Position numbers and translations under genes: made by a program | The notes under the pieces: generated by a model | Databases searched by the model: none | What the model was told of the DNA's origin: nothing | The model's input: the letters and a program-made list of their open reading frames with translations, nothing else | Shown here: piece by piece, positions 17,750-36,157 of the stretch | How positions within the stretch are numbered: the first letter of the stretch is position 1 | Layout: every line of letters begins with the position of its first letter | Source of the DNA: a virus | DNA: 64,000 nt | Virus record (IMG/VR): IMGVR_UViG_3300031519_004372 | Coordinates: 71,782-135,781 of that record | Reading direction: 5' to 3' (one strand)

Positions 17750-18742
17750 ATGGCAAATCTGTCAACATTAATAGTAGCTAAACACCCGACCTACGCCGGG
17801 ACTGAAAACAATATGGAAACAGGTAAACTGTTCTATTTCTCCCCTGTTCAAGAACATGACCAATGCACTAAGGTTACCTGGCAAAGTCCCGGGGTGGGAA
17901 CAGCACGGGTAGAAATTTGGGGAGCAGGCGGAAGCGGCGGCAAAATGTGTTGCTGTGGACAAGGCGTTCCGGGAAATCCTGGAGCATATGTTGTTAAAAC
18001 TTTTATAACTGATGCAGCAAGCAGAGTTTGCGGATGTATTGGTGTTTCGTGCGGTAATAACGATACTTTGTGCTATCGAGGACAAAGTACAGGTTCGTGT
18101 GTATGTTGGTTTGGAGCAGCTTCAGATTCAGCACTTTGCGGATGTTTATGTGCAGAAGGCGGCGATGGCGGAACAACATATTGCAGTCCAGACAGTTCTC
18201 ATTATTGTTGTTTTGTAGCTGATGCATTATTTTGTACAACAGTAGGAACTGCACCTTCAGGCACTGCCTGGGGAACAGGATGTGGCATAGCATGCAATAC
18301 AAGACTTGCAATTGCAGCAGCTTATGGTGGAGATATTAACTGTCCGGGTGGAGTTAGTTGTACAAGTTTTTATAACTGTGATAGTGCAAACCATTGTTAT
18401 GTACAATGGCATATTAAAGGACCAGCAGGCGTTCATGCAACAGAAGGCACTAGGATAACATTTTCTGGAGACAACGATAGTGCAATCTCAAAAGGCGGCA
18501 CAGCACAGTATCAATCAACTCATAAATATGCACTAGAAGGCGCATCAAGACAACCGCAAAAAGGAATGGACTTAGCATTGTGTTACTTTAGTAGACATTG
18601 TGGTTGCTACGAAAACAACGGTTGCCAAGTTACACTACCACATGGTCATCCAGGAGCACCAGCAATGACATGTAATAGTGTTAGAGATGGCGGCCAAAGA
18701 GGCGGCATGGGGGCAATAAGAATATTGTGGAAAGCAACATGA
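17750..18742 (+). CDS. Cys/Gly-rich putative fibre-tip protein 1
   Basis: 330 aa with 28 Cys (manual count); VEIWGAGGSGG..CCC glycine-rich-domain motif. Confidence 0.65.
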   Translation: MANLSTLIVAKHPTYAGTENNMETGKLFYFSPVQEHDQCTKVTWQSPGVGTARVEIWGAGGSGGKMCCCGQGVPGNPGAYVVKTFITDAASRVCGCIGVSCGNNDTLCYRGQSTGSCVCWFGAASDSALCGCLCAEGGDGGTTYCSPDSSHYCCFVADALFCTTVGTAPSGTAWGTGCGIACNTRLAIAAAYGGDINCPGGVSCTSFYNCDSANHCYVQWHIKGPAGVHATEGTRITFSGDNDSAISKGGTAQYQSTHKYALEGASRQPQKGMDLALCYFSRHCGCYENNGCQVTLPHGHPGAPAMTCNSVRDGGQRGGMGAIRILWKAT

Positions 18743-18763
18743 TAATTTATAGGAATTTAAATA

Positions 18764-19756
18764 ATGGCAACTCTTAGTTCAATACTTAATAACAGAATAG
18801 CAGACTTTGCACCTGATGAGACTAATCTAGAAGATGGAGAGATTTACGTTTTTTGTTCCGGCAGAGAATTTGGATGTTTTACCAGCTGTCTTGCTTGGAC
18901 GGCACCTGCTGCAGGAACTGCAAAAATTGAAATTTGGGGTTCTGGCGGCAGTGTAGGTTGTCAGTGTTGCTGTAACTATAGTATAGGCGGCCAATCAGGA
19001 GCATATTCTAGAAAAGATGTTACTATGGGTGCTGACGGATACGTTTGTGGAAACACAGGACACCCGTGTATGCCTAACGCAGGTTTTTGTTATTCAGGAT
19101 GTTCAGAAGCAACTTGTTTAACAGTTTGCACAGGTGCATCAGGTACTTGTATTTGTATGTGTGCAGAAGGCGGCAACGGCGGAGGCCAATGGTGTCGTAC
19201 TAGTACTAGTCACGTATGTTGCTTACAAAAGTGCTGTTTTGGTGTTGTCTTTCCATCTCAAATGAGTACAGGATGTGGATATGTATGTGGATGTAGAAAT
19301 ACATACGCTGTAGCTACAGCATACGGTGGAGATATTAACTGTCCAGGAACTTATAGTTGTGTTTACATAAGCACTTGTGATATTTCTGGCAACAGATCAT
19401 ACGAAACTAATTCAAATGCTATACCTTATGGACAGTACACAACAGGTCAATCAAATGCAATGTCAAGTGGTGACAACGGTACAAACATACAAGGACAAAA
19501 TCAATCAGGCGAAGGTAACGCTAACTCAACTGCGGCAAAGTCCGCTATAAACAGAAATAGTGGATTTGGTATATCCCAAGGCCAGCAAGCGTGTTGGGCT
19601 TCAGGCACTCATTGCGCCTGCTACGAAACATATGCGTGTATTCCGTGGGTTCCACCAGGACAAGGTGCTAATAGAATGATGGGTTGCCCAGATGTAAGAA
19701 ACGTTGGTGCCCGAGGTGGACTTGGCTACATAAGAATATTGTTTAAAGCGACATAA
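18764..19756 (+). CDS. Cys/Gly-rich putative fibre-tip protein 2
   Basis: 330 aa with 32 Cys (manual count); IEIWGSGGS.GC.CCC, C.C.CAEGG, AYGGDINCPG, C.CYE. Confidence 0.65.
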   Translation: MATLSSILNNRIADFAPDETNLEDGEIYVFCSGREFGCFTSCLAWTAPAAGTAKIEIWGSGGSVGCQCCCNYSIGGQSGAYSRKDVTMGADGYVCGNTGHPCMPNAGFCYSGCSEATCLTVCTGASGTCICMCAEGGNGGGQWCRTSTSHVCCLQKCCFGVVFPSQMSTGCGYVCGCRNTYAVATAYGGDINCPGTYSCVYISTCDISGNRSYETNSNAIPYGQYTTGQSNAMSSGDNGTNIQGQNQSGEGNANSTAAKSAINRNSGFGISQGQQACWASGTHCACYETYACIPWVPPGQGANRMMGCPDVRNVGARGGLGYIRILFKAT

Positions 19757-19765
19757 GGAAATAAA

Positions 19766-20875
19766 ATGGCAAGTTTAAAATCATTATTAAGTACTAAATC
19801 TATTATAACAGAAGGTACATCAGAAACCAATATAGAAAAAGGTAGAGTATGGGGATTTACTCCTATGAACCACAGTGAAGTTAATAATGGCGGCATGAAA
19901 TTTTTTGGATGCCAAATTATTACTAATGACACTGATGTAGTAAACATTGAAGTTGAAATGTGGGGAGCTGGCGGGCGAGGTGGCAGTTGTCATTGTTGTT
20001 GTGCAGCAGGCCCTGGAGGAAATACAGGCTCGTATGTAAGATTTACAATACCAATGACAAGAACTGGTTATATATGTATAACAGGAATGAGAGCTTGTAA
20101 CAGCGGTAGCCATTGTCAGTGCGGTGGACAAGGCAGTTCTACTTGTGCTGAAATATGTCCAGGTTCAGTATCAGCGTGTACATATGCGTGTATGTGTGCT
20201 TGTGCTGAAGCTGGTTTAGGTGGCAGACAAATGTGTATTGATGGCGGCCAGTCTATGTATACATGTTTAAAAAATATGGGAGCATGTTATACAGATAGTT
20301 TGGATCTCGATGGTAATGCTGTAGGTGCTGGATGTGGAATAATTTGCAACTACGGTACAGGTACTTGGCCTAACGACAGTAATTTACCTCAATCTTATGT
20401 TTCAACTCATGCTGGCAGCATGTCAAAAATTACATGTTGTCCTTCATTAGCATCATCTGCTGCTAAGATGTATTTTGGACACTGTAACTTGTGTTGTTGG
20501 AATTGTCATAGACAAGTAATATCCACAGCTCCGATGAGATATTCAACTTGTGGTGGCGAAATGCAACTTAACCATGGATGGAACGATTACATGTCATACG
20601 AAGGTAGTGCATTTGGTCAAATGGATGCAGCAGTACAAGGCCTAAGTAGAGCTCCAACTTCGGGAACAAGGTCAACTCGTTGCTGGGCAGGTGACAAGAC
20701 GTGTACATGTTATGAAACACAAGGCTGTTGGTCTCCATGGCCAGTGGCGCAACCTTCACCAGCTACATTTGCATGTACATCAGTTAGGGCACACGGATGG
20801 GCCGGAGGACACGGCGCAGTAAGAATTAAATATTTAGGAAACCCATCTTCTTATACCAGTGCTGGCGAAGGTTAA
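19766..20875 (+). CDS. Cys/Gly-rich putative fibre-tip protein 3
   Basis: 369 aa with 32 Cys (manual count); VEMWGAGGRGG.C.CCC, CMCACAEAG, CTCYETQGC. Confidence 0.65.
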   Translation: MASLKSLLSTKSIITEGTSETNIEKGRVWGFTPMNHSEVNNGGMKFFGCQIITNDTDVVNIEVEMWGAGGRGGSCHCCCAAGPGGNTGSYVRFTIPMTRTGYICITGMRACNSGSHCQCGGQGSSTCAEICPGSVSACTYACMCACAEAGLGGRQMCIDGGQSMYTCLKNMGACYTDSLDLDGNAVGAGCGIICNYGTGTWPNDSNLPQSYVSTHAGSMSKITCCPSLASSAAKMYFGHCNLCCWNCHRQVISTAPMRYSTCGGEMQLNHGWNDYMSYEGSAFGQMDAAVQGLSRAPTSGTRSTRCWAGDKTCTCYETQGCWSPWPVAQPSPATFACTSVRAHGWAGGHGAVRIKYLGNPSSYTSAGEG

Positions 20876-20886
20876 TGGTTAACCTA

Positions 20887-20894
20887 TATAAATA
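20887..20894 (+). promoter_or_regulatory. T4-type late promoter (one of many TAAATA boxes)
   Basis: TATAAATA. The same box lies upstream of genes at 2360, 5098, 12227, 17371, 24444, 24873, 38881, 40690, 44083, 44822, 47879, 50153, 51744, 57457 and 58843, and on the - strand at 38866 and 40627. Confidence 0.75.
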
Positions 20895-20927
20895 CAGTAC
20901 TACTTTACTTAATTAAGGAATGAAAAA

Positions 20928-21590
20928 ATGCTAACAAAAACTTTTACTTACATTTACCCAAATGAACCTTGGAACCCAAGTGTAACAGACGGAAACTCTG
21001 TTACAGTAACTTGGAAAGGACAACGGTATTACACTTTTAGTGTAAAAACTGCAACTGGCGAAGTCTTTGCAATTGAAGATCAAGCTGATGATCTTGACCA
21101 GTTAACAAATGATTTACCTAATCAAATACACGAAGGACATACTTTTCATATATTAGATGCAAAAGAAAATCCAGAGGTAGCAGCACTTCTGATGGGAGAT
21201 GATACTATTCCTGCAAAAGATGCAGCTGGCGGTATTCCAGATTATACGTTTGAAACTCCAGGTAGTGACCAAGATTATGTATTTGAATATAATACTAATA
21301 ATTTTGTAGCTAGTTGTCACTCAGGCGGCTTATTGTACAATGTTTCATCAGGAGCATTTACAATGCCTCCATTTTTAACGCATATGATTCAAAAAGAACA
21401 ACTTTTTGATGGATACGAAGCAGATGCAGCAAGAGTTGATGCCACACTAGCAGATAGAGAAGACGAATTTACTGCGGCTGAGGTAACGATATTAAAAGCA
21501 CATTCAATTTGGCTTAAAGGTGTAAGAGCAGCGTATGCAAATATTGATGCTTGGAAAATTCCTTATCCAAATCCTGGTATTCCATACTAA
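20928..21590 (+). CDS. Hypothetical protein, possibly a tail-fibre assembly chaperone
   Basis: 220 aa acidic protein directly after the Cys-rich triad; helical C-terminus ending in WKIPYP, loosely like Tfa/gp38 chaperones. Confidence 0.4.
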   Translation: MLTKTFTYIYPNEPWNPSVTDGNSVTVTWKGQRYYTFSVKTATGEVFAIEDQADDLDQLTNDLPNQIHEGHTFHILDAKENPEVAALLMGDDTIPAKDAAGGIPDYTFETPGSDQDYVFEYNTNNFVASCHSGGLLYNVSSGAFTMPPFLTHMIQKEQLFDGYEADAARVDATLADREDEFTAAEVTILKAHSIWLKGVRAAYANIDAWKIPYPNPGIPY

Positions 21591-21685
21591 GAAAAAAAGC
21601 AGTTCATAATTAAGTAGGGCCTTTGGTCTCACTCTATAAGTAGTAGTATAATGTACAAATACTACAATCCAAAAGGAATTTATAG

Positions 21686-22633
21686 ATGAGATCAAAGGCT
21701 TTTTTTGTCAACGGGGGTTACGGCAGGGTAGTTAGTTCTATTCCTGGTTTTGAACTTTACGCTAAAGAATCAGGAGATGAAGACTTTATTATTGTTTGTG
21801 AAGGCGGAACTGATGCATTCAAAGGACATCCTGAATTAGACCATCGTGCTTATGATAACTGGCACAAAAACTTATTTAAAGAAAAATTAATTGATAAAGA
21901 TATTATATCACCTGAACCATATCGAATATGGGAATACTATAATCAAAAAGCTAGTTTAGCTCAAGGTTATGATATTGCAATTAATAACAAAGGTTTAAGA
22001 GATTTACCAAAACCAAGAATGTTTCTATCAAAAGAAGAAACACTTATGGGTAGACAAATAGTTAATCAAGTAAAAGAAAAATTAAAAAAAGAAAAAGTTG
22101 CAATTATTCAACCATTTGGTAGAGGAATAACTCACGTAGATAACACATTTGTTGACAACACTGGACGAAGTATTGAATACAAAGATCTTAAAGAAATAAT
22201 TAGAAAACTACAAGAAAATGATTTTGCTGTAGTAACAATGGCAGAAATGGGATTTGACTTTACTAAAGATAAATTTAAAGACGATGTTGCAATGCCAGAA
22301 TCAGTTTCGTTAAGGCATTGGTCTGCAGCAATTAAATTTGCCAATCACTTTATTGGATGTGATAGTGTTGGACAACACCTGTCGTATATTATGGACACCC
22401 CTTCAACAATTATACTAGGTCCTACATATCCTATAAACGTATCTTATCCTGATTGTGATTACTTTAATATTGTTGATTTAGGTCAAAACGGTAGAGTATA
22501 TGATCCAATTAGAATAATGCCAGACGAAACTACATCAAGACACAACGAAAATTTAATGTCGATGAGTAAAGATATTGTTGAATATGTAATTGACAGAGTA
22601 TTAGGAAAACCAATAGAGGAAGATGATGAATAA
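21686..22633 (+). CDS. GT9-like glycosyltransferase (ADP-heptose heptosyltransferase family)
   Basis: 315 aa; N-terminal GGYGRVVSSIP and C-terminal SLRHWSAAIKFANHFIGCDSVGQHLS...TPSTIILGPT match the GT9 pattern SL.E..A.I..A...IG.DSG..HLA.A...P...LFGPT. Confidence 0.7.
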   Translation: MRSKAFFVNGGYGRVVSSIPGFELYAKESGDEDFIIVCEGGTDAFKGHPELDHRAYDNWHKNLFKEKLIDKDIISPEPYRIWEYYNQKASLAQGYDIAINNKGLRDLPKPRMFLSKEETLMGRQIVNQVKEKLKKEKVAIIQPFGRGITHVDNTFVDNTGRSIEYKDLKEIIRKLQENDFAVVTMAEMGFDFTKDKFKDDVAMPESVSLRHWSAAIKFANHFIGCDSVGQHLSYIMDTPSTIILGPTYPINVSYPDCDYFNIVDLGQNGRVYDPIRIMPDETTSRHNENLMSMSKDIVEYVIDRVLGKPIEEDDE

Positions 22634-24446
22634 TAACAACAACACTAAAACACAATGGATAGCTGGAATTGCTAGAGGACACAATTCAGGAATTTGTTTA
22701 TTAAAAGATGGAGAAGTTGTATTTTCAATTGAAGAAGAACGTTTGAGCCGTAATAAATATGACGGTGGTCCACTAGCGTCTATTATTAAAATTTTAGAAT
22801 ATACAGATAGATTAGATTACTTAGTTGTAGCTCATACTCAGCCGTTAAGTGAATCATCACCCAAATTAGAATTTTCCTCAGATGATGTATATACAGGACT
22901 GTGTAAAAAGTTAGGATTAATTGACAGAGGCCACCGCGGACAGAACAACCATCCACAAGTTGTTGATGTATCAGACAAACATCATCAATTACATGCAGCC
23001 TGTGCATTTTATAGAAGCGGATTTGACGAAGCTGTGGGTGTAGTAATTGACGGCGCAGGAACATTTATACCAATGTCCATTGCTGGTTCTGATATGTATG
23101 GATACGAGACGGAGACATTGTTTAACTGTTCCTATCCTGCAACCTTTCAAACAATTGGAAAACATATTGGTACTAGGGGACCTCATGGTATAGACTTTGT
23201 TATGTCAGATGATAAAGAATCACCGTTTGAGATAACAGTATCCGACCGTGCAGGAATAGTTAAGGTATACGAAGCAGTTACTCAGTATTGTGGATTTAGT
23301 GCAATTGAAGCAGGAAAAACTATGGGACTATTTCCATACGGAAAACCAAACGATAAAATTCCAAAATTATTTGACGATATGGGCAGAGTACCATTGTCAA
23401 ATAGAAATTTAGTTGCACCTACTTATCCTAACGCAGCAGTAGTAAACGAAAATTTATATACTGAACTAGCAACAGGTACTATATTTGACGGCTCTCCTAA
23501 CGGGGAGAGGGTTGACTTAACTCTTTTAGAAAATCGAAGAGACCTAGCATATGCATGTCAAATTGAAACACAAAAAGCAGCATCTGCAGTCATTAGAGAA
23601 GCAGTTGAAAGAAGTGGTAAAAAGAAAGTAGTAGTCAGCGGCGGTTACGGATTAAATTGTGTTGCTAACTACTTTTATCTAAAAGATCTAGAAGACTTAG
23701 ATATTGAACTTTATGTAGAACCAGTGTCTAATGATGCAGGCACAGCTATGGGTGCAGCTATGATGATGTATCATCAACTTTCTAATAGTACAGAAGTATT
23801 GCCAAGAACAGATAGTTTATATCTAGGACCAAAATATGATTATAAGCCGCAACAACTAAGGACAATTGCTAAAAATTATAATGCAGAAGTAACAGATGCA
23901 ACTAATGAAGATATTATAGAATTAATTACATCTAGAAAAATTGTTGCAATATTTCAAGGACGAAGTGAAAATGGACCACGTGCATTAGGAAACAGAAGTA
24001 TCATGTACGATCCAACTGACCCTCATGGTAAAGACTATGTTAATGAAATTAAGCACCGTGAATATTTTAGACCATTTGCAGGTAGTATACTAGAAGAAGA
24101 CGTACACGAATGGTTTGATTTACGTGGCATGGAAAATTCTCCTACAATGATGTATGCTGTTAATTGTCAGCCTGGCATCGAAGAAAAGATTCCGGCTATT
24201 ATTCACGTTGATGGAACTTGTCGTATTCAAACTGTTAACAGGGAACAAAATCCGCATTACTATGATATTATTAAAGCATTTAAAGAAAAGACAGGGTGTC
24301 CAATTATCTTTAATACTAGCTTTAACTTAGGTGGCGAACCTTTAGTTGAAACACTAGAAGATGCATTATGGACATTACAACAAAGTAGAATAGAATATTT
24401 GTATTTGCCGGAATATAATTCTTTATTTACTTTGCTAAACGAATAA
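22623..24446 (+). CDS. O-carbamoyltransferase (NodU/CmcH/TobZ family)
   Basis: 607 aa; HNSGICL...EEERLSR.K, HH.LHA..AFY.S, IDGAG, GKTMGL.PYG, SGGYGLNCVAN, NDAG.A.GA, RSE.GPRALGNRSI, REYFRPFA, HVDGT.RIQTV, NTSFN..GEP.VET. Confidence 0.92.
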   Translation: MMNNNNNTKTQWIAGIARGHNSGICLLKDGEVVFSIEEERLSRNKYDGGPLASIIKILEYTDRLDYLVVAHTQPLSESSPKLEFSSDDVYTGLCKKLGLIDRGHRGQNNHPQVVDVSDKHHQLHAACAFYRSGFDEAVGVVIDGAGTFIPMSIAGSDMYGYETETLFNCSYPATFQTIGKHIGTRGPHGIDFVMSDDKESPFEITVSDRAGIVKVYEAVTQYCGFSAIEAGKTMGLFPYGKPNDKIPKLFDDMGRVPLSNRNLVAPTYPNAAVVNENLYTELATGTIFDGSPNGERVDLTLLENRRDLAYACQIETQKAASAVIREAVERSGKKKVVVSGGYGLNCVANYFYLKDLEDLDIELYVEPVSNDAGTAMGAAMMMYHQLSNSTEVLPRTDSLYLGPKYDYKPQQLRTIAKNYNAEVTDATNEDIIELITSRKIVAIFQGRSENGPRALGNRSIMYDPTDPHGKDYVNEIKHREYFRPFAGSILEEDVHEWFDLRGMENSPTMMYAVNCQPGIEEKIPAIIHVDGTCRIQTVNREQNPHYYDIIKAFKEKTGCPIIFNTSFNLGGEPLVETLEDALWTLQQSRIEYLYLPEYNSLFTLLNE

Positions 24447-24456
24447 ATATTATATA

Positions 24457-24858
24457 ATGTTTAGTTTATCAAAATTTTTTAATAAAGGTCTTAAAGACAG
24501 TTTATTGTTTGCTTCAAACGGTGCAATGTCTCATAATGGTCCCTGGAAACAAGTTTATACTGATACCTTAATAGACAGGTTTCATGTTAGTGACTTTTCA
24601 TCAGCAGAATATACTATCTCGGTAGATTTTAATAAAGATAAAAAAGAAATACTTAAAGTCTTAGTAACTGCAAGTTTAGACACTGCTAGTGTTGTAATTT
24701 ATGCAAGGAACAATTTAGATATTGATCTTGTTAATATAACTGCTACTGTAAATAATAGTTATGTTGATATTATCGCTAATCCTACAGCATCAAATGAAGG
24801 ATCTAAGATAATTTATACTGTGCAATATTTTCAAAATCAAAATCCTCAAGTTGTTTAA
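24457..24858 (+). CDS. Putative virion structural protein
   Basis: 133 aa; IDRF...DFSSAEY.I beta-sandwich pattern common in phage fibre proteins; late promoter immediately upstream. Confidence 0.55.
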   Translation: MFSLSKFFNKGLKDSLLFASNGAMSHNGPWKQVYTDTLIDRFHVSDFSSAEYTISVDFNKDKKEILKVLVTASLDTASVVIYARNNLDIDLVNITATVNNSYVDIIANPTASNEGSKIIYTVQYFQNQNPQVV

Positions 24859-24903
24859 CATTTATAATATGATAAATATGTTAACTAGGAGGATTAATAG
24901 GAT

Positions 24904-25791
24904 ATGCCAACAGTTACAAATAAACAACTAGAGTCTACGTACGGTTTTAAAAGTACAGGCTTTTCTGTAGATAATGCTGGAAATATAACAGCTCTGTCAC
25001 TTGTACAAACAGGAGCTGCAGCAGTTGATCCGGAAACGCCTGCAACCTATACTATAACCGAAAACGGATCTAATACTGCATATATTTGGGCACCTGGTGC
25101 TACAGAAAATCCTACACTAACATTAGCAAGAGCTGCATCATATATTATTGACTTAACTTCGTTAACAAACGGAATATATTTTTATAATGGTGCAACACAG
25201 TATAATACAGGACTTACACATTCAGACGGATCTACAGGAACAACAGCCCAAGGAAAAACTTCCGGACGACTAGTTTGGGCAATATCAACTAGTGCTCCAA
25301 GTACGTTAACTTATAGAAATTTATCAGGAACAATAACAGGAACAATTAATGTAACTGATCCTATAGGACAATTTGCTACTGTTACAATTAACGATACTAC
25401 TACCTCAACAAATAGTACAAACGGTGCTTTAACTGTAGCAGGTGGCATAGGTATATCGTTAGACTCTAATTTTGGAGCAGACGTGGGTGTTGCAGGAACA
25501 CTTGCTGTTCCTAATGTATATAGTAGTTCTTCGTTAAGTTTAGATGCAGCAACATCTGTGTTACTTAAAGTTGCAGGAACAACTATAGGAACTCTAACAG
25601 CAACAGGAATGGCTGATATGGCTATAAATAACAGTAGTATAAACAATAGTGTAATTGGCGCAATTACTCCAACAACAGCTAGTTTTACTTCGGCTATAAT
25701 AGCAAATGCCCCGACAACAAAAACATCGGGAACAAATAAAAAATACGTAGACGATACTGCAATAGCTTTATCAATAGCACTTGGGATTTAA
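24904..25791 (+). CDS. Putative virion structural protein with a cupredoxin-like beta module
   Basis: 295 aa; NPTLTLAR..SY.IDL ... AP.TLTY ... G.I.V; C-terminus KKYVDDTAIALSIALGI; TAAATA and AGGAGG upstream. Confidence 0.55.
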   Translation: MPTVTNKQLESTYGFKSTGFSVDNAGNITALSLVQTGAAAVDPETPATYTITENGSNTAYIWAPGATENPTLTLARAASYIIDLTSLTNGIYFYNGATQYNTGLTHSDGSTGTTAQGKTSGRLVWAISTSAPSTLTYRNLSGTITGTINVTDPIGQFATVTINDTTTSTNSTNGALTVAGGIGISLDSNFGADVGVAGTLAVPNVYSSSSLSLDAATSVLLKVAGTTIGTLTATGMADMAINNSSINNSVIGAITPTTASFTSAIIANAPTTKTSGTNKKYVDDTAIALSIALGI

Positions 25792-25796
25792 ATAAG

Positions 25797-28700: not shown

Positions 28701-31700
28701 TATGGTCCACTATTAACGGTTGTTACAAACGGAACATCGTATAGTGTAAATATTACTTCCGCAGGTCAAGACTTTCAGGTTGGAGAAACTATTACTATTC
28801 CTGGAGCATTGTTGGGCGGAACAACCCCAACAAATAATTGTAATATTACTATCCAGTCAACAGTTAGTAATGGTCAGTTAGCTGGTTTATCGCCAGCTGG
28901 ATTGGCTGTTAACAGTAAGTCTTTTACAAGTCAAGCAGGCTCTAATTTAATTGGATCTGGATTTGTTGCAAATCTTTCATCAGCAAGTGGGTCATATTCT
29001 ATAGATTTTCAAGATGCAAGTGATTTAGGAGGTTCTAACTACGGCTTAGGCCAGACTTTTATTATTCCTGGAAACGAACTTGCAGGGAACGCCTATCCTG
29101 CTACAATAACAATTACCGGAGTTACTGACGATGACTCAACATCATCTGGTGAAATAACATCAGTAACAATAGCAGGAACAGCATCAGATGGTACTGGTAC
29201 ATATAATAGTTTAGAAACATCAAATTCACAATCATCAGGTTCAGGAGCATCATTTAACCTAACTAGAGACTCTCAAGACAGCTCGGGTATATATGAGAGT
29301 TTTTCACTTGCAGGCTCACCGAGTGGATATATAACTGGCGACAAAGTTACTATACCTGGAACACAACTTGGTGGAACAACTCCTGCTAACGATTTAACTC
29401 TTATATCAAATGGAACAAATTTTAGTAGTATTGGATTTGTAAGCGGAACCCCAGTACAAGCATCAGTACTTAATTTAGTTTGCACATTTTCAATGACTGA
29501 GGCAACTACATCAGTCCTTGCTCCTGGCACCACTGTAACGTTTGAAGCTTTAGCAACACTAGAAATAGTCTTTCCTAATGCCCACGGCCTAGTTCCCGGA
29601 AGTAGCTTTATTGTTACACAGCAATCAGACGATGGTTCAAATAATCACAATTTAGCTGCAGGGTCGTTTATTGCTACTGATATTCCGGCTACTAATAGTT
29701 TAAGATATCAAGCTCGTGCTGCAGGCGCAATTGATGTTAGTTCAACTCAAATTATTGGTGTTGTTTATCCAAGACCGGATAGTTTCTTTATACACAGGCC
29801 ATTTGATGGCGGCGTACAATTAGGCACAGGCGGGCCGCAACACGGAGCACAGGCAATACGTCAAAGTAAAAAGTATATTAGATATCAGTCTGGTAAAGGT
29901 ATTATGTACACAACTGGTGCATTACTTGCACCAAGTTATGACTTACAAAGTGTAACAGCAGATGGTGTTGAACTTAATTCATTAATTACTGTTGTAACAG
30001 ATGATAACGATCACGGATGTCAAATTGGTGGCGTAGTACGTTTAATTGGTATACAAACTGCAGGCTATAATAGTGGCCCAGGAAATAGTACACCACCAGA
30101 TTTTGATTATGAAGTAGTTGATATTGTAGATGAAAGAACATTTAAAATTCGTTCCAAACGTAGACTCGGTAGTACAACTGCTGATTTAGGATTTAATTCT
30201 CAAATGAGTGTTGTTAGTTGGCACGGTGCAACTGTTAGAGCTGGAGTATTTGATGACCAAAACGGAATTTTTTGGGAATATGACGGAACAAATGTTAACG
30301 TAGTTCAGCGTACTGGTACATTCCAATTAGCTGGCACAATTGCAGTGCAAGCAGATGCTAACCTAATTACAGGTACTAATACAAAATTTACTAAACAGTT
30401 AAAATCGGGCGATAGAGTTATTATCAAAGGAATGACTCACGTTGTTACTAATGTTACTAGTGATACTGGTATTACAGTTACCCCAGACTTTAGAGGTGTA
30501 AACGATGTAACTGGTGCAAAGATGATGTATATAACAGATAAAAAAGTTAAACAATCAAACTTTAACTTAGATCGACTAGACGGTACGGGTAAATCAGGTT
30601 ATGACATGGACCCAGCAAAGATGCAAATGATTGGAATTCAGTACAGTTGGTACGGTGCTGGATTTATTGATTTTATGGTACGTGGTGCAGACGGAAACTT
30701 TGTATACGCACACAGAATGCGTAATTCAAACGTAAATACAGAAGCATTTATGCGTTCAGGTAACTTGCCTGTTCGTTACGAAATTACAAATGAAGGACCT
30801 CCAGGTCAATTAGTATCAGCAATTAATTCATCACAAACTACTCTTCCTTTAGTTGATAGTAGTTTCTTTCCAACAAACGGAACAGTTTATATTGATAACG
30901 AAATTATCACGTTTGCTGGAAATAATAAAGTAACAAATACGTTAACTGGTGCAGTTAGGGCAGCAACATTTACAAACTATCAAGCAGGCGCAAATAGAAG
31001 TTATACTGCTGGTGTAGCATCATCTCACGTTATTAAAACAGGAGTAGTTTTAATATCAAGTACAATTACTCCGTTGATTAGTCATTGGGGATCTGCATTC
31101 TTAACAGACGGTGGATTTGATGAAGATAGAGGTTATATTTTCTCATACGCTGAAACAAACGTTTCGGTTAGTACTACAAAACAAACAGCATTTTTACTTA
31201 GATTAGCACCAAGTGTATCAAATGCAATCATTGGAGATTTAGGAGAAAGAGAACTATTAAACCGTGCTCAGCTACTACTTCAAGGACTTGAAATTACATC
31301 AGAATCAGGCGCAGGAGGTATTATTGTTGAAGGTGTGCTAAATCCGCAAAACTATCCAATTAACCCAGTTGATATTGCTTGGTCAGGATTATCAGGACTA
31401 GCACAAGGTGGACAACCTAGCTTTGCTCAAATAGCATCTGGAACATCAGTTGCTTGGAGTTCAGGAGAAGTTCCTGTTACTACAACTGCAACTGCTCTTC
31501 CTACAACTACTGCGGTACTAGATAGTGGGATTTATGGTGTAGGTAATAACAATCGCTATATATTTGTTAATAGTAGTGATTTTAGAACTACATTTGGATC
31601 TAACAATGTTAATGAAGTAGTAGGTAAAGTTATATCAGGTACTAACATTCCAACTGGTACAACAATTACTAGCGGCTATATGCCAAGTAGTGGAACATAT

Positions 31701-32240
31701 GGATACTTTTATATAAGCCAAAGAACATCTGGCAGTATTAGTGCAAACTCAACGAATCATTTTACTATTACACTAAATCCTGAATCAGTTAATTCAAACA
31801 AGGCGTTATTTGATACAACAACATGGCTAGCATCAGGCGCTAGAAACGGCACTGATACTACTGGTGGCAGTGTAACTTGGCCAGCTAACTCAGCTGTTGG
31901 CTTGATATCATTAAAGAGTTGGGCCGGAACTAGTTATTATGAAGTAACATTTAACAATGCGTTTACAGGAACACTTGCTAACGGTTCTGGAACAGTGCAA
32001 TTTACATTCCAACAACCGCCGTACGCTCAACCAGGAGAAACTGTGTTTTCATTCATTGCTGTACCTGGCGAACGTTCAACACTTGATCTTAGTGAATTGA
32101 AAGAAATTACAAATACTCCATTAGGAGGAAGAGGAACATTTCCAAATGGTCCTGATGTGTTGGCTATTAATGTGTATAAGATTTCGGGTGCTACACTTAC
32201 TTCTAATATTTTGCTTAAATGGGGTGAAGCTCAGGCTTAA
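25797..32240 (+). CDS. Giant virion structural protein with repeated beta-sandwich units
   Basis: 2147 aa, T/G/S-rich; about six repeats of G.GY..GD.I.IPG..LGG.TP.NDL.I.V. Confidence 0.7.
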   Translation: MAKKQIKDYIFKPGISALAYVYPDAYSLLSQNKSYLQAEATAWIAAQVAAGASGFVGYTFNESKCQRDLGYIIDAYLSDLRYGGNQEIRRVVGYYWDQTTAQVDGDRQPEIQTHTEIRNIINNYILTNTAHTSLQSTVAQVIDGTKTAETSSSFTATDGTYVPTTGNMTITIGSHSLTVGTELFIAPAGITFTCALDGNATLHPYPRASGVPNNTGKDPFYYAPITISAVTSTTVTINVGISSDTTLHTFSSAVTDSISAGPINKISTLAFNVTDVITTGLTALPTLVETGVSTIKIQGRYETNELLLFTNTTRNELIYNFSTVDLGGTISQKLHGEDTDFSKYLQTTDAVTTITLVKDTSTHLSTDDIQIFVEDEFIRTKPYDFGVDAIERQRVAAPLAMLDADFEYGLQPTKWSAIGTLRGYPSVYEVPGTDSQVLNIITDASAGTDGVGQSLITVTTLSPHGFLEGDPFTLKALENSIAGAARAEGSFVISSVPTTTSFNYYAKSKVGTVSGQVLVTTYSQLRKAGFYTGASIGSPESGVAIQSFTVLTQGTSGTLTSELSTPIGSTLVPFDGVSPEIGAPLVGSGIPTGSQVTGVIDQSAGGGSYLTPVLSVDVPSGSTSMTVVDGTGILEDLALDDGSGTAIFVESVVGNVITLSAPTTQPYVGNTVLYSGVTGTNVSSTGSGLRSTIDSDGTDFTVNVITAPGSGYSVGDNVKISGINLGGTTPTNDLLLRVTTINLGGGATALAVVSGTPFDGVASYTGLAPTTTGGAGTGATWDIAFTDNSFASITLASGAVPTGYVVNDRIQFLGSTFNGLGFAGAVDGTHDLIVTVTAVNGTGAPTSTSQTGTAPDANNQYVINDDSTEMVMSAAGSHLTFSNTAAADALRTAGDYLGVTGTSGGSGTVGTFDITVNASGAATNIQRTYDIGSGHTIGDTITIADSALGNGGAANLTFDVATIGTGTGYGPLLTVVTNGTSYSVNITSAGQDFQVGETITIPGALLGGTTPTNNCNITIQSTVSNGQLAGLSPAGLAVNSKSFTSQAGSNLIGSGFVANLSSASGSYSIDFQDASDLGGSNYGLGQTFIIPGNELAGNAYPATITITGVTDDDSTSSGEITSVTIAGTASDGTGTYNSLETSNSQSSGSGASFNLTRDSQDSSGIYESFSLAGSPSGYITGDKVTIPGTQLGGTTPANDLTLISNGTNFSSIGFVSGTPVQASVLNLVCTFSMTEATTSVLAPGTTVTFEALATLEIVFPNAHGLVPGSSFIVTQQSDDGSNNHNLAAGSFIATDIPATNSLRYQARAAGAIDVSSTQIIGVVYPRPDSFFIHRPFDGGVQLGTGGPQHGAQAIRQSKKYIRYQSGKGIMYTTGALLAPSYDLQSVTADGVELNSLITVVTDDNDHGCQIGGVVRLIGIQTAGYNSGPGNSTPPDFDYEVVDIVDERTFKIRSKRRLGSTTADLGFNSQMSVVSWHGATVRAGVFDDQNGIFWEYDGTNVNVVQRTGTFQLAGTIAVQADANLITGTNTKFTKQLKSGDRVIIKGMTHVVTNVTSDTGITVTPDFRGVNDVTGAKMMYITDKKVKQSNFNLDRLDGTGKSGYDMDPAKMQMIGIQYSWYGAGFIDFMVRGADGNFVYAHRMRNSNVNTEAFMRSGNLPVRYEITNEGPPGQLVSAINSSQTTLPLVDSSFFPTNGTVYIDNEIITFAGNNKVTNTLTGAVRAATFTNYQAGANRSYTAGVASSHVIKTGVVLISSTITPLISHWGSAFLTDGGFDEDRGYIFSYAETNVSVSTTKQTAFLLRLAPSVSNAIIGDLGERELLNRAQLLLQGLEITSESGAGGIIVEGVLNPQNYPINPVDIAWSGLSGLAQGGQPSFAQIASGTSVAWSSGEVPVTTTATALPTTTAVLDSGIYGVGNNNRYIFVNSSDFRTTFGSNNVNEVVGKVISGTNIPTGTTITSGYMPSSGTYGYFYISQRTSGSISANSTNHFTITLNPESVNSNKALFDTTTWLASGARNGTDTTGGSVTWPANSAVGLISLKSWAGTSYYEVTFNNAFTGTLANGSGTVQFTFQQPPYAQPGETVFSFIAVPGERSTLDLSELKEITNTPLGGRGTFPNGPDVLAINVYKISGATLTSNILLKWGEAQA

Positions 32241-32867
32241 TTACATTTCCAAAGATTTTACAAAAGCACTTAGATCATCAAATATTTTTGTTTTGGCTTT
32301 TATCTTTTTGTATGTAAATCTTTTTAGTAATTTTTCAGTTTCTTCTCCGTAACCTGTTCTGACTAGGATAGGAGTTGCACCTATTTTTATAGCTACTTTT
32401 AAATCAGATATTCTATCACCAACATAATATCCTGTTGAGAATTTGATACCAGGGTGTTCTTTTTCACAGCGTTTAAACATGCCAGTATTAGGTTTAGCAT
32501 ACATATCGTCTTTTCTACTACTTTCACTAAAATATAATGCTTCGATACTTGCACAACCTGCTTTCCCTAATAATTCAAACATTCTTTGATGTACTAGCTT
32601 AACATCATCTTCTGTCATTATACCTTTTTCGATGCCGCCTTGATTAGTTATAATAACAACTTGGTATTGATGTATTTTTAATGATGTAATTGCTTCTAAG
32701 CTACCTGGAATAGGTTCAAAGTCTTCAGGTTTAGTTACATATGTTCCTAGGTCTTTATTAATAGTACCGTCACGATCTAACCCAATTACTATTTTAGAAT
32801 TCTTTTCAGCTTGGTTAATTAATTTAGGTATATCTGATGACCACCTAATTATTGGCTCATTGGTCAT
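32241..32867 (-). CDS. gmhB: D-glycero-D-manno-heptose-1,7-bisphosphate phosphatase (HAD family)
   Basis: GLDRDGTIN, ITNQGGI, KPNTGMF, YYVGDRISDL motifs; start moved from 32945 to ATG 32867, which overlaps the cupin stop codon. Confidence 0.85.
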   Translation of the reverse strand: MTNEPIIRWSSDIPKLINQAEKNSKIVIGLDRDGTINKDLGTYVTKPEDFEPIPGSLEAITSLKIHQYQVVIITNQGGIEKGIMTEDDVKLVHQRMFELLGKAGCASIEALYFSESSRKDDMYAKPNTGMFKRCEKEHPGIKFSTGYYVGDRISDLKVAIKIGATPILVRTGYGEETEKLLKRFTYKKIKAKTKIFDDLSAFVKSLEM

Positions 32868-33240
32868 TTTGACTATCTCCTGGGGCAATTCTATAATTAT
32901 CTTCGACACTATCAGGAGTACTAACTTCAGTAATACTACTACCATCTTCTAGTGCTTCAATTTGATGCGGCTGCAAAGGAGGATTGTGCCATGTTTGTCC
33001 TTCGCATAATTCTTGTTCATGATGCGTAGCATCGTTAGTATTAATCCACCTTACAATAAATTTACCGTTGTTTACAAACCAAGTTTCGTCTTTTTCTCTA
33101 TGAAAGTGCATACTAAACTTGTTTCCAGTTTTTTCAAACACCATAATTTTACCACAGTATTTTTCGTTAGTTGCCCAGATAAGTTCATAACCCCATCCTT
33201 TTTGTACAACTCCGCTTAACCGTTCAATTTTATTTGTCAT
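32857..33240 (-). CDS. Cupin-fold sugar(-phosphate) isomerase-like protein
   Basis: 127 aa; KGWGYE, YCGKIM, FSMHFHREKDETW, PHQIEA, EVSTPD cupin metal-binding motifs. Confidence 0.75.
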   Translation of the reverse strand: MTNKIERLSGVVQKGWGYELIWATNEKYCGKIMVFEKTGNKFSMHFHREKDETWFVNNGKFIVRWINTNDATHHEQELCEGQTWHNPPLQPHQIEALEDGSSITEVSTPDSVEDNYRIAPGDSQNDQ

Positions 33241-33751
33241 GTTTTGTTTCCCATTTAATCATTAATTCTTTAATTACTGTTGAATACAGCTGATGCTCTA
33301 GGCGTTGAATACGAGTGCTTAACGAGGTGTAATCATCACCATTAAAAACTCCACAACTTAACTGAGCAATGATTCTACCTGTGTCCATACCTTCGTCCGC
33401 CCAATGTACAGTACAGCCAGTAACTTTAACACCGGCATCTAATGCTTGTCCTATTGCATTAGCACCAGGGAAACTTGGTAGCAGACTAGGATGAATATTT
33501 ATAACTTTAAACTTGCTAACAAATTCTTTACTCAGCAATCGCATAAATCCAGCTAATATTACTAATTTAGTATTTTTAGGAACTTGACTCTCATAGTTAG
33601 CTGTACTTACAATGCATTTAACACCTAACTTTCTAGCTAAATTGCTAATACCTGCATTTTCTTTATTAGTTATTACTAAGTCAACTTTAATACCATCTTC
33701 TATAATAGCTTTAAAATTTGTACCTGTTCCACTAGCCATTAAGACTATCAT
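33230..33751 (-). CDS. purN: Phosphoribosylglycinamide formyltransferase
   Basis: 173 aa; ASGTGTNF, ILAGFMRLL, INIHPSLLPSFPG, GCTVHWADEGMDTGRII. Confidence 0.88.
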   Translation of the reverse strand: MIVLMASGTGTNFKAIIEDGIKVDLVITNKENAGISNLARKLGVKCIVSTANYESQVPKNTKLVILAGFMRLLSKEFVSKFKVINIHPSLLPSFPGANAIGQALDAGVKVTGCTVHWADEGMDTGRIIAQLSCGVFNGDDYTSLSTRIQRLEHQLYSTVIKELMIKWETKHDK

Positions 33752-34559
33752 TAATATAATCCTCTATATTAGTCCAATCATGATAACACACAGAATTTAA
33801 CTTAGATAAATCTGCACTAGTAAATTTTTGGTATTGTAACTTTATGTTTTCTGGCATTGGTATGTATTGTATACCAGCACTGTGCCTGTTAGCAATAGTT
33901 TCTGCTACAGTTTGAAAACTTACAGGATTGCCTGTGCCTACGTTAAATATACCCGATTGATCCACATCAAACATTTTTTCGTGTAGCTTGCATATATCAT
34001 CTACACATACAAAGTCTCTAAGATATTTGTCACTATCCTCAAATAGTGTAATCACTTTATCTTCTTTTGCTTGTTTAGTAAACTTAGTATACGGACTTGC
34101 TTGATCACCTTTGTCCTCTTCACCTTTGCCGTAAACATTAAAGTATCGAAAGCCTTGTATCTTAATGTTAAATTCGTCTATATATTGATTCATAAACCTG
34201 TCAAACAAATATTTTGACCACGCATAAGGGCTTTGTGGTAATAACGGTCCGTCTTCGGTAAAGTGTGTAGTAGAGCCGTAAACACTTGCACTAGATGCAT
34301 ATTGAAAGTTAGTACCAAAGTTTTCGCATACTTGTGCAAGACGCACACTAAATTCAAAGTTCTGTTCTAGTATTTGATTTACGTCAGTGTAAGTAGTTGA
34401 ACTAATAGCCCCTAAGTGTATGCACCAATCATAACCTTCTGTATGTGGAACTATGCCAGGTTCCCACTCCCATCCTTCTACTTCGTGACCTTGCTGCTGT
34501 AAATAACTTGCAACATTCTTACCAATAAAGCCTTTGTGTCCCGTAACTAATATTTTCAT
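33732..34559 (-). CDS. hldD: ADP-L-glycero-D-manno-heptose 6-epimerase (extended SDR)
   Basis: 275 aa; TGHKGFIG, YASSASVYG, YAWSK, FRYFNVYG..E..KG.QAS, RDFV.VDD, YQ.FT.ADL. Confidence 0.85.
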   Translation of the reverse strand: MKILVTGHKGFIGKNVASYLQQQGHEVEGWEWEPGIVPHTEGYDWCIHLGAISSTTYTDVNQILEQNFEFSVRLAQVCENFGTNFQYASSASVYGSTTHFTEDGPLLPQSPYAWSKYLFDRFMNQYIDEFNIKIQGFRYFNVYGKGEEDKGDQASPYTKFTKQAKEDKVITLFEDSDKYLRDFVCVDDICKLHEKMFDVDQSGIFNVGTGNPVSFQTVAETIANRHSAGIQYIPMPENIKLQYQKFTSADLSKLNSVCYHDWTNIEDYINDSLNG

Positions 34560-35695
34560 TTGCTTGCCTCTATAATCTGTGTTGTTGAATAACCTTCAAC
34601 TGTAGGTACAAGATGCACATCAGCCAAATCATGACCTACAACTTGTTCTACTGTGTAATCACCGCCTTTTACAATAACGTGCGGAACTACCTCTTTAATT
34701 AATCTGTACGGAGTGTCTTCATCAAACACAATTACTTCGTCTACCCACGGTAATAATTCTAATTGACTTTTACGTTTGTTTACATTATTAATAGGACGCT
34801 TAGGACCTTTAAACCGTCTAACACTTTCATCTGAATTTATACCTACTATCAGTTTTCCACCCAGTGATTTTGCTTCAGCTAGTAGTTCAAAGTGACCCGT
34901 GTGTAGTATATCAAAGCATCCGTTAGTAAACACTATGCGTTCTTCAAGATCGCTTACAGTAAGCGTGTGTGTGCCTACGTGTGTGACTGCCTCAGTAGAC
35001 CCTTTTACTGCTAGTTGTAAACACTTTTCATAAGTATATTCTTTTGTAAGTCCATATACAAATGCCGCCAAAAAACAGTCGCCTGCGCCAGTAACATCTG
35101 ATACTTCAACTTGTTCTACAGGAATTGTATATTCGATATTGTCTATTGTAGCACTTACACTGTGACCTGCATCTGTAGTAATAATATTACCTTGCCATTC
35201 GTCAAACTCAAACTTAGTATATTCATTGTTGTTAGGCTTCACTAACCACGCACCTTCATAATTATATGCATAACGTTTAGGGTCTACAATTACTTTAGGT
35301 CCTTGACTATTAATATGTGCAATAATTTGTTTTGCATTGTCTAATACACCTTTATCATAGTCACTAAGTATTACATAATCCCATTGTGAAAAATCATTCT
35401 TTAGTACATTTGTTAGTATATCATTAGAGTCTGCATCTTTATCATCGTCAATTCGTGTAATATAATGTCCGTCACAAATTACTCTAGTTTTAATGCTACT
35501 AGGCTGTTTGGTTTCAAATAGTGTTACATCAACACCTAAACTTTTTAAGTTTTCATAAACAAGCCCGGCTCCACCAAGTGATTGAACTTCACGCAAGTAC
35601 TTGACTACAGGTACAGGAGCCTCAGGACTTAACCGTTCAGAAGTGCCGTAGATATATTTGTCGATTATTATATCGCCGATAACTAATACTTTCAT
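34556..35695 (-). CDS. hldE: Bifunctional heptose-7-phosphate kinase / heptose-1-phosphate nucleotidyltransferase
   Basis: 379 aa; GD.I.D.Y..G..ERLSPEAPVPV, LSDYDKG, DVTGAGD (PfkB kinase) followed by FTNGCFDILHTGH, INSDESV...KG..RP, KGGDY, GYSTT. Confidence 0.92.
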   Translation of the reverse strand: MKVLVIGDIIIDKYIYGTSERLSPEAPVPVVKYLREVQSLGGAGLVYENLKSLGVDVTLFETKQPSSIKTRVICDGHYITRIDDDKDADSNDILTNVLKNDFSQWDYVILSDYDKGVLDNAKQIIAHINSQGPKVIVDPKRYAYNYEGAWLVKPNNNEYTKFEFDEWQGNIITTDAGHSVSATIDNIEYTIPVEQVEVSDVTGAGDCFLAAFVYGLTKEYTYEKCLQLAVKGSTEAVTHVGTHTLTVSDLEERIVFTNGCFDILHTGHFELLAEAKSLGGKLIVGINSDESVRRFKGPKRPINNVNKRKSQLELLPWVDEVIVFDEDTPYRLIKEVVPHVIVKGGDYTVEQVVGHDLADVHLVPTVEGYSTTQIIEASK

Positions 35696-35701
35696 ATTGT
35701 T

Positions 35702-35730
35702 ATTATACTACCTTTTAGGTTAATTGTCAA
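35702..35730 (-). promoter_or_regulatory. Consensus sigma70 promoter of the heptose operon
   Basis: TTGACA (35730-35725), 17-nt spacer, TATAAT (35707-35702); only 6 nt before the hldE ATG. Confidence 0.85.
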
Positions 35731-36157
35731 GAAGATTTATTGTTTTAAATACAGTTTCTAATTTATTAAGATTTATTTTGCTTTGAAGAGTATTACGTAG
35801 TCCAAGGTGTAGCGGCTTTGGCCATTTTCCAAAACTGCACCAGGCATAACCACTATGTTCATGATTTAACGTTGGAATAAATTCTTCATCAATTACACAA
35901 AGATATGTATGAAATTGAAAATGTTGATCGTTAGATACAAACGATTCTAAAGGCAACGTTTTTTTAATTGTAGGAAGTTGTCCGATTTCTTCTTGAATTT
36001 CTCGTTGGAGGCCCTCCCAAGGAGTTTCTATTCCTTCGTTAGTGCCACCCACTAATCCCCATAAGTCGGCCTTTTTGCCATTTGCTCTTAGCAAAAATAA
36101 AAATCTATTTGTATTAAGTGTGTAGAAAAGAGCTCCACTGCAAACAATATTGTTCAT
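35720..36157 (-). CDS. Nudix hydrolase
   Basis: 145 aa; Nudix box WGLVGGTNEGIETPWEGLQREIQEEIG. Confidence 0.85.
   Translation of the reverse strand: MNNIVCSGALFYTLNTNRFLFLLRANGKKADLWGLVGGTNEGIETPWEGLQREIQEEIGQLPTIKKTLPLESFVSNDQHFQFHTYLCVIDEEFIPTLNHEHSGYAWCSFGKWPKPLHLGLRNTLQSKINLNKLETVFKTINLLDN

Follow-up and report, generated by a model that had tools for sequence, protein, structure and literature searches.

A divergent GT9-like glycosyltransferase, an O-carbamoyltransferase and a heptose operon as a probable sugar-modification module beside the tail-fibre genes of a jumbo T4-like phage

The DNA analysed here (the window) is a stretch of 64,000 nucleotides that forms the last 64 kb of the 135.8-kb IMG/VR record IMGVR_UViG_3300031519_004372 (completeness 38%, CheckV), and our interest was in a glycosyltransferase, an O-carbamoyltransferase and an operon for heptose synthesis which it carries close to its virion genes. 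T4-type genes in the window include gp13-15, sheath, tube, terminase, a gp32-like single-stranded DNA-binding protein and UvsX. All open reading frames (ORFs) named in an earlier note on this DNA, which had been made from the sequence alone, were found in place (Table 1). On the plus strand two fibre proteins of ~1,600 aa are followed by two proteins of ~105-110 aa with tail-fibre PHROG matches, three Cys/Gly-rich paralogues, a 220-aa ORF (p220), the transferase, the carbamoyltransferase, a 133-aa ORF (p133), an ORF similar to a gp9/10 connector and a structural protein of 2,147 aa. Starting 7.8 kb from the end of the carbamoyltransferase, five overlapping minus-strand genes encode a HldE-like fusion, a HldD-like protein, a PurN-like protein, a cupin and a GmhB-like protein. 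The earlier note had described an hldE-hldD-gmhB operon ~8 kb downstream, and its genes, coordinates and distance are correct, but it had overlooked the PurN-like and cupin genes.

Table 1. Features of the locus, numbered from the first letter of the window.
Feature	Position	Strand	Evidence or remark
Three tandem Cys/Gly-rich paralogues	17750..20875	+	330, 330, 369 aa; motif VEIWGAGGSGG..CCC
T4-type late-promoter motif TATAAATA	20887..20894	+	34 nt 5' of the p220-transferase-carbamoyltransferase block
p220, 220 aa, candidate acceptor or partner	20928..21590	+	directly 5' of the transferase gene; fast-evolving
GT9-like GT-B glycosyltransferase, putative ADP-heptose-dependent, 315 aa	21686..22633	+	phrog_8954, E 1.5e-126; fold
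TobZ/NodU-family O-carbamoyltransferase, 607 aa	22623..24446	+	start overlaps transferase stop by 11 nt
p133, small conserved protein	24457..24858	+	3' of the carbamoyltransferase gene
GmhB-like HAD-IIIA phosphatase	32241..32945	-	NF006506, E 5e-38
Metal-binding cupin	32857..33240	-	about 40% identical to T4-GC307 of S-SSM7, S-CAM1, P-SSM2
PurN-like formyltransferase	33230..33751	-	TIGR00639, 151.1 bits (cut-off 150.1); between cupin and hldD
HldD-like ADP-heptose 6-epimerase, 275 aa	33732..34559	-	TIGR02197, 227 bits (cut-off 274.6)
HldE-like kinase and adenylyltransferase fusion, 379 aa	34556..35695	-	NF008454, E 2.4e-83
sigma70-type promoter TTGACA-17-TATAAT	35702..35730	-	12/12 match; ends 6 nt 5' of the hldE start codon

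The modelled fold of the transferase is specifically GT9-like, a relationship that is recognised by fold and profile comparison only. Its AlphaFold2 model (predicted local distance difference test score, pLDDT, 95.5) retrieved GT9 structures in Foldseek with E 7e-12 to 1e-9, and VIA-align gave a Z of 22.7 for 3tov, a GT9 protein from Veillonella, 20.8 for WaaF, 19.8 for TibC and 18.6 for WaaC, while GT-B families outside GT9 gave Z ≤12.0. A GT9/GT-B fold had been set beforehand as the test for the gene starting at 21686, and this is the fold that the model and both structure comparisons returned. On the profile side the protein matches the NCBIfam model RfaQ (NF007742) at E 7e-4 with 18.5 bits against a cut-off of 467, a profile made from 58 sequences of its family reaches WaaF at E 0.05, and hhalign of the family with WaaF gives a probability of 86%, which applies to the C-terminal domain only. 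A few of its close homologues do carry a precomputed PF01075 match.

The residues expected to hold the donor could be placed by hhalign, which pairs R161, D226, S227 and H231 of the transferase with K192, D261, T262 and H266 of WaaC; its CDSVGQH aligns with VDTGLSH of WaaC and NDSGLMH of WaaF. In two alignments R161, D226-S227 and H231 are either invariant or conserved to 90% or more, a pattern that argues for an active nucleotide-sugar site. The conservation extends over the cleft, where G10, G11, E77-P78-Y79, Q142-P143, D157, R161-S162, D226-S227 and H231 are invariant or almost invariant across proteins that are only 25-30% identical. A further motif, GG.GR-hh..hP, matches MGDVLHTLP of WaaC and VGDMMMS of WaaF, with G13-R14 at the position of WaaC G12-D13. 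The acceptor domain has a mean net charge of -1.3, compared with +8 in WaaC and +5 in WaaF, which bind the anionic lipid A-Kdo. The enzyme is thus GT9-like, neither a canonical GT9 member nor a bacterial autotransporter heptosyltransferase (BAHT), and from the earlier description as a GT9-type transferase the fold and the donor motif hold, whereas it stays below the Pfam GT9 threshold and lacks both the catalytic Asp and a basic acceptor domain.

For the following gene the proposed function as O-carbamoyltransferase could be confirmed at the level of family and motifs. Both the Kae1-like N-terminal domain (Carbam_trans_N, PF02543, 94.9 bits, cut-off 24) and the YrdC-like C-terminal domain (Carbam_trans_C, PF16861, 202.6 bits, cut-off 27) match above their cut-offs, a PDB search found TobZ, NovN and GdmN with E 1e-46 to 1e-56 (TobZ 4e-46), and the metal and nucleotide motifs HHQLH, DGAG, GPRALGNRS and NTSFN are intact. 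It scores 151 bits against the NodU equivalog, whose cut-off is 1000, and is therefore a member of the family and not NodU itself.

The proteins of the heptose operon keep the motifs of their families and stay below the NCBIfam equivalog cut-offs, and by these scores we regard them as divergent. The HldE-like fusion matches the models of both domains, heptose-7-phosphate kinase and heptose-1-phosphate adenylyltransferase, below the equivalog cut-offs (280 bits against 521), has PfkB and CTP_transf_like domains above the Pfam cut-offs and contains DVTGAGD and GCFDILHTGH. The HldD-like protein shows the NAD-binding motif GHKGFIG together with YxxxK and is 39-45% identical to cyanophage T4-GC308 proteins. 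The GmhB-like protein reaches 130 bits against a cut-off of 178 (NF006506) and 75 against 149.6 with the two GmhB models but 85.7 bits with the HAD-IIIA model TIGR01662 (cut-off 44.6), and its HAD motifs DRDGT, TNQ and GDRISD are intact. For gmhB the longest ORF shares 89 nt with the cupin gene and opens with a hydrophobic segment; translation more likely begins at the Met at 32867, because this gives an 11-nt overlap like that of the cupin/PurN junction. The PurN-like gene is missing from the equivalent operon of the closest relatives (L017 and L024), and it is probably an unrelated purine-synthesis insertion outside the module rather than a sugar formyltransferase.

No SIS-type GmhA (PF13580) was found in the 135.8-kb record nor in two relatives that are 98-100% complete. 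A cupin of ~125 aa, however, accompanies the heptose genes in every clade examined; in the distant clade described below it is a neighbour of HldE/HldD in 28 loci. Its metal site (His-His-Glu-His; H45, H47, E52, H92) is invariant, a fold search of the PDB returned generic metal cupins with D-lyxose isomerases at the highest identity (23%), and some clusters of this cupin in the protein atlas carry Lyx_isomer or MannoseP_isomer matches. All this is compatible with a ketose-aldose isomerase, without proving it, and makes the cupin a candidate stand-in for GmhA.

To see which of these genes belong together we turned to the relatives of the transferase, which are encoded on at least 598 IMG/VR stretches. 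Gene context was read in a close set, the 80 closest loci, and in a distant set, 80 loci of a clade ~30% identical to the transferase of the window; most contigs with distant homologues are too short for such a reading, and a single-protein scan for the distant clade gave no match. In the close set the carbamoyltransferase adjoins the transferase in 79/80 loci, and in the remaining one the contig breaks off at the transferase. HldD is present in 16 of the 22 long records that bear the transferase and in both near-complete genomes, in one of them ~95 kb away from it, and every cultured cyanophage with the transferase also has HldD. The distant clade often has HldE, cupin and HldD directly after the transferase without a carbamoyltransferase, which occurs in 39/80 of these loci. 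Among cultured phages P-SSM2, S-SSM7 and S-CAM1 share the order tail fibre, small proteins, transferase (T4-GC302), carbamoyltransferase (303), adenylyltransferase, kinase, small HAD-like protein, cupin and epimerase. The co-occurrence of transferase, carbamoyltransferase and heptose genes in relatives, which the earlier note had asked for, is therefore real, although exceptions exist, and from the pattern across clades ADP-heptose is the best-supported donor and carbamoylation an optional second step. Distant homologues of the transferase also occupy structural modules in unrelated phages: a T4-like phage has one between gp15 and gp16, and in 78-kb Vibrio phages one lies between a 1952-aa protein and a tail protein.

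The two parts of the system are preceded by different promoter-like elements. Ahead of the transferase block lies TATAAATA, and on the plus strand five of the six copies of this motif in the window (at 2360, 20887, 40690, 57457 and 58843) sit 6-39 nt 5' of an ORF start, which has a P of about 7e-7 under uniform placement. The motif is not enriched in number, with 10 copies for 10.65 expected, and only its position is informative. The consensus sigma70 promoter that had been claimed for the donor operon is indeed a perfect match in front of hldE. An early-type promoter on the donor operon compared with a T4-type late motif before the transferase block fits the suggestion that the donor is made ahead of assembly. 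Directly 5' of the hldE promoter (35720-36157, minus strand) we noticed a NUDIX hydrolase gene; a NUDIX gene adjoins HldE also in L017 and L024, and adjoins gp15 in many loci without heptose genes.

What is observed directly, namely the identity of the genes, the modelled fold of the transferase, its conserved donor site and the linkage of the genes, points to one module consisting of a donor pathway, a GT9-like transferase and a sugar carbamoyltransferase, a reading that we hold with a probability of roughly 80%. In the model that we propose, the operon with the early-type promoter would make ADP-glycero-manno-heptose from sedoheptulose-7-phosphate, with the metal cupin probably taking the place of GmhA, the HldE fusion providing the kinase and adenylyltransferase steps, the HAD phosphatase acting in the role of GmhB and HldD carrying out the 6-epimerase step. 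Within the tail-fibre cluster, the block with the late motif would supply the divergent GT9-like transferase that loads the heptose onto an acceptor, and the translationally coupled TobZ/NodU-type enzyme would then O-carbamoylate the sugar, most simply at a heptose hydroxyl. The expected product would be a carbamoyl-heptose like the 7-O-carbamoyl-heptose that is part of the lipopolysaccharide (LPS) core of Pseudomonas aeruginosa (PMC7168646). Inferred in this model are the use of heptose as donor, where the carbamoyl group goes, what the cupin does and, most of all, the nature of the acceptor.

As acceptor we tentatively suggest a virion protein, most likely a host-recognition or tail protein that is produced together with the transferase, and we would put this somewhat below an even chance. 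It is favoured because the transferase is found in virion modules in three unrelated arrangements, because the late motif TATAAATA precedes the transferase block by 34 nt, because the acceptor domain is not basic, unlike that of WaaC and WaaF, and because TibC, which heptosylates beta-helical adhesins (PMC4358343), sets a precedent for adhesin heptosylation.

Several observations weigh against this model, one of them concerning the transferase's active site. At the position of the GT9 Asp, which is the putative catalytic residue D13 in WaaC (PMC9068772) and corresponds to the catalytic base Asp-110 of TibC (PMC4358343), the phage family has Arg14, which is at least 90% conserved in two alignments. 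Arg14 was placed by motif, by secondary structure and by where the structural alignment with WaaC begins (model residue 2 on WaaC residue 1), rather than by a residue-level superposition; in the structural alignment with TibC model residue 1 falls on residue 96, which brings R14 to about residue 109-110. Activity and chemistry of the transferase are therefore unproven. Also the family assignment is not supported by standard searches, as the protein has no Pfam match at E 0.01 and a six-frame search of the whole record with PF01075 gave nothing at E 1. The fold search with the cupin cannot tell an isomerase from other metal cupins. As to linkage, a complete 202-kb phage as well as 78-kb Vibrio and Aeromonas phages carry the transferase without heptose genes; the donor operon therefore accompanies the transferase as an accessory and is not tied to it, and phages of this kind may rely on ADP-heptose of the host. 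Conversely, the heptose genes of S-SM2 and P-TIM68 lie in large polysaccharide islands near hli and other glycosyltransferases and no such transferase is present; in other phages, glycosyltransferases of other kinds are served by the heptose genes. In the 160 loci the carbamoyltransferase and the heptose genes are the only neighbour families common to both transferase clades, and in T4-like phages the region from tail fibre to neck is also a favoured site for accessory genes, which makes position by itself weak evidence.

The 202-kb phage just mentioned (G031, locus L121) is T4-like, has terminal repeats and is 100% complete; its transferase-like gene lies ~3.5 kb 5' of gp13-gp16, and no HldD, HldE or carbamoyltransferase was found near it. 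In the islands of P-TIM68 (L172, 7768-8913) and S-SM2 (L173, 5422-6630) we saw transketolase-like genes beside the heptose kinase, which fit a supply of sedoheptulose-7-phosphate for heptose synthesis.

Among the other explanations, a remodelling of the host surface survives best, even if we consider it unlikely. Here the carbamoyl-heptose would be an epitope on LPS or another lipid-linked saccharide and would block superinfection or the adsorption of progeny to debris, which is how 'LPS genes' of phages have traditionally been read. The closest solved relatives of the transferase do include the LPS enzymes WaaC and WaaF, but it has neither their basic charge nor the catalytic Asp. The LPS core is the source of the only known natural carbamoyl-heptose (PMC7168646), the islands of S-SM2 and P-TIM68 combine heptose genes with several other glycosyltransferases, and T4-GC 304-308 were classed with LPS genes by Sullivan et al. 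2010 (PMC3037559). Against this, it is the pair of transferase and carbamoyltransferase that occupies virion modules in three unrelated contexts, the late-type motif would be late for changing a surface, and no flippase, ligase or membrane protein adjoins the pair in the window. A virion host-recognition protein is preferred over a host surface glycan as the acceptor.

Less probable again is a bolder version of the virion model, in which the phage GT9-like family would be a new mechanistic branch. The exchange of Asp for Arg would suit a nucleophile that needs no base, such as a Cys thiolate or a carboxylate, the carbamoyl-heptose would be placed on receptor-binding tail proteins and the donor would come from a pathway with a cupin in place of GmhA. 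If true, this would be the first described virion glycosylation by marine T4-like phages and could tune or mask host recognition.

The Arg at the catalytic position could also mean that the transferase is a pseudo-enzyme that serves as a structural or assembly factor, for example as a fibre chaperone, with the heptose and carbamoyltransferase genes being separate auxiliaries in the same variable region. GT9 folds are known as structural subunits in plant NDH (7wff, 7f9o, 9grx; Z about 18), the transferase is always found among structural genes and some phages have it without heptose genes. We nevertheless see little chance for this explanation, since donor-site and cleft residues that are near-invariant at 25-30% identity represent an enzyme-like conservation, and the tight linkage to the carbamoyltransferase (79/80) and to the heptose genes is hard to explain without a shared substrate.

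Just as doubtful is a product in the form of a soluble or small-molecule heptoside or a modified nucleotide-sugar, which might act as inhibitor, signal or counter-defence metabolite, instead of a modified macromolecule. Such a product would agree with TobZ, NovN and GdmN, the closest solved carbamoyltransferases, all of which act on small natural products, with the non-canonical active site of the transferase, which permits an unusual acceptor, and with the lack of an acceptor protein conserved across the transferase clades, but it leaves the placement in virion modules and the late-type motif without explanation, and the surroundings of the pair in the window hold no further genes for tailoring or export.

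DNA hypermodification, either by carbamoylation of 5-hydroxymethylcytosine (5hmC) or by glycosylation of phage DNA by the transferase, has almost nothing to recommend it even though the T4 DNA glucosyltransferases are likewise GT-B enzymes, because no homologue of a dCMP/dUMP hydroxymethylase was found: PF00303 is absent from the record, which is weak evidence at 38% completeness, and from the two relatives that are 98-100% complete. The characterised phage 5hmC carbamoyltransferase (MetaGPA) belongs to the same Pfam families as the enzyme described here, but it co-occurs with a thymidylate-synthase-like dCMP hydroxymethylase, and carbamoyltransferases on unmodified contigs are flanked by unrelated genes, e.g. 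glycosyltransferases (PMC8670742).

Returning to the module of donor pathway, transferase and carbamoyltransferase, we found that its cassette is already known from published cyanophages as T4-GC 302-308 (P-SSM2 PSSM2_307-313, S-SSM7 SSSM7_120-133, S-CAM1 SXBG_00216-222; also S-CAM3, Sf-FS3, S-SSM6a and P-SSM5). In these genomes the transferase carries the label 'hypothetical', and the heptose genes go under the name of LPS genes with no known role (PMC3037559; PMC7378029); Sullivan et al. 2010 read the heptose-gene islands as LPS genes, perhaps even as 'stuffer DNA' (PMC3037559). The window shares with the cassette the transferase (38-49% identical), the carbamoyltransferase (46-62% identical), kinase, adenylyltransferase, cupin and epimerase as well as the position after the tail-fibre genes. 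What it adds is a different architecture, in which the donor operon stands apart, 7.8 kb downstream on the other strand and with its own sigma70-type promoter, one fusion protein of the bacterial HldE type unites kinase and adenylyltransferase, a complete GmhB-like HAD-IIIA phosphatase is found where the cassette has a HAD-like protein of ~111 aa, and the operon contains the PurN-like insert. The phages also differ, as the lineage of the window has about 355 kb and no psbA. Regarding the cassette itself, the proteins named 'phosphoheptose isomerase' (T4-GC306; S-SSM7_130 at L001:21055-21390, P-SSM2_311, S-SM2_207/210) have ~111 aa with the HAD-like motifs DIDNT ... GKP..DD and no SIS domain, and they appear to belong to the 7-phosphatase step under a wrong name.

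Outside of cyanophages, each part of the module has a counterpart in a known system. The inner core of P. aeruginosa LPS is also built with ADP-heptose, transferases of GT9 fold (WaaC/WaaF) and O-carbamoylation of a heptose (7-O on heptose II), but the acceptor there is lipid A-Kdo and the phage transferase lacks the catalytic Asp, the basic acceptor domain and the Pfam GT9 match. TibC and Aah, which O-glycosylate the adhesion proteins TibA and AIDA-I from ADP-heptose, have the GT9-like core in common with the phage enzyme (Z 19.8 for TibC). In TibC a beta-barrel, a beta-hairpin thumb as well as a four-Cys iron finger are needed for the dodecamer (PMC4358343). The phage transferase has neither the N-terminal beta-barrel nor the four-Cys iron finger, contains three Cys in total and no CxxC pair, aligns as a model with TibC residues 96-393 only and shows Arg where TibC has Asp-110. 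Mycobacteriophages, whose virions are glycosylated, likewise encode glycosyltransferases which decorate their own virion proteins (Freeman et al. 2023, cited in PMC12801897; see also PMC12619734), but they use other glycosyltransferase families, sugars and hosts, and are not known to have a phage-encoded donor pathway or carbamoylation. The phage 5hmC carbamoyltransferase (Yang et al. 2021, PMC8670742) is phage-encoded too and has the same two Pfam carbamoyltransferase domains; it has a dCMP hydroxymethylase as its linked partner and constitutes a separate branch, whereas the enzyme of the window has a GT9-like partner and no hydroxymethylase, a comparison made by description only. For phages we found, in the literature searched, no description of the GT9-like fold, of Asp replaced by Arg, of a transferase coupled to a carbamoyltransferase or of a carbamoyl-heptose product.

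The T4-like phages that infect ocean bacteria rank among the most abundant viruses, their host recognition is poorly understood, and the evidence points to a coherent donor-transferase-carbamoyltransferase module tied to their tail-fibre region. If virion proteins are indeed decorated in this way, host range would be controlled at a new level, phage self-glycosylation would have its second example, and enzymology would gain two novelties, namely a GT9-like enzyme that lacks the canonical base and a cupin used for GmhA. As S-CAM1, S-CAM3, S-SSM7, P-SSM2 and Sf-FS3 are cultured carriers, the question can be tested directly.

Over the region the nearest cultured relatives are the Kyanoviridae S-SSM7, S-CAM1, S-CAM3, Sf-FS3 and P-SSM2 with 60-70% nucleotide identity. 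Two metagenomic relatives with the module, G007 (L031, 353 kb) and G009 (L034, 364 kb), are 98-100% complete, and neither psbA nor a thymidylate-synthase family gene nor a SIS isomerase was found in them. The phage therefore belongs to a jumbo T4-like group of ~355 kb with no assigned host and is not a demonstrated cyanophage; the lineage of G007 and G009 has its fibre module in common with the cyanomyoviruses. It is distinct from the 'moraphage' jumbo lineage (PMC12619734). The sole match to the transferase among 185,579 species genomes was a 66% identical fragment on an 894-bp contig (L174) in a metagenome-assembled genome of Yoonia sp. (Rhodobacteraceae), which is probably a binning artefact and too weak for naming a host.

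Of the genes around the transferase pair, the Cys/Gly-rich triad is not a constant companion of the module. The three proteins contain 28, 32 and 32 Cys (8.5-9.7%, from alignment and counts), match phrog_4205 and are connected by the protein atlas to Gly_rich_2 viral clusters, which we take as a lead only. A tblastn search of 50,697 phage records with the Cys-rich protein gave no match, and no solved structure was matched by the profile of the triad. The genes lie beside the transferase in 66/80 close loci but in only 4/80 distant loci and are therefore at best a lineage-specific acceptor; they are a non-obligatory partner of the module. It is possible that they are fibre-tip proteins and one candidate acceptor. 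The second candidate, p220, has no Pfam, NCBIfam or PHROG match, and its family occurs in 76 of the 160 loci at a median offset of -0.7 kb from the transferase. With a mean column identity of 21% and one invariant column only, p220 does not look like an enzyme. A relationship to the 2-oxoglutarate (2OG)-oxygenase/DUF6445 proteins, such as the gene 5' of the transferase in S-SSM7, was rejected because almost no residues are invariant. On the other side of the pair, p133 has no family match in Pfam, NCBIfam or PHROG and follows the carbamoyltransferase in 65/80 close loci. Finally, one or two extra ORFs of 288-308 aa are inserted between transferase and carbamoyltransferase in some relatives (L022:10939-11805 and L071:10943-12777). 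They match no Pfam family and are not paralogues of the transferase, to which they show no similarity, and they may be further tailoring enzymes.

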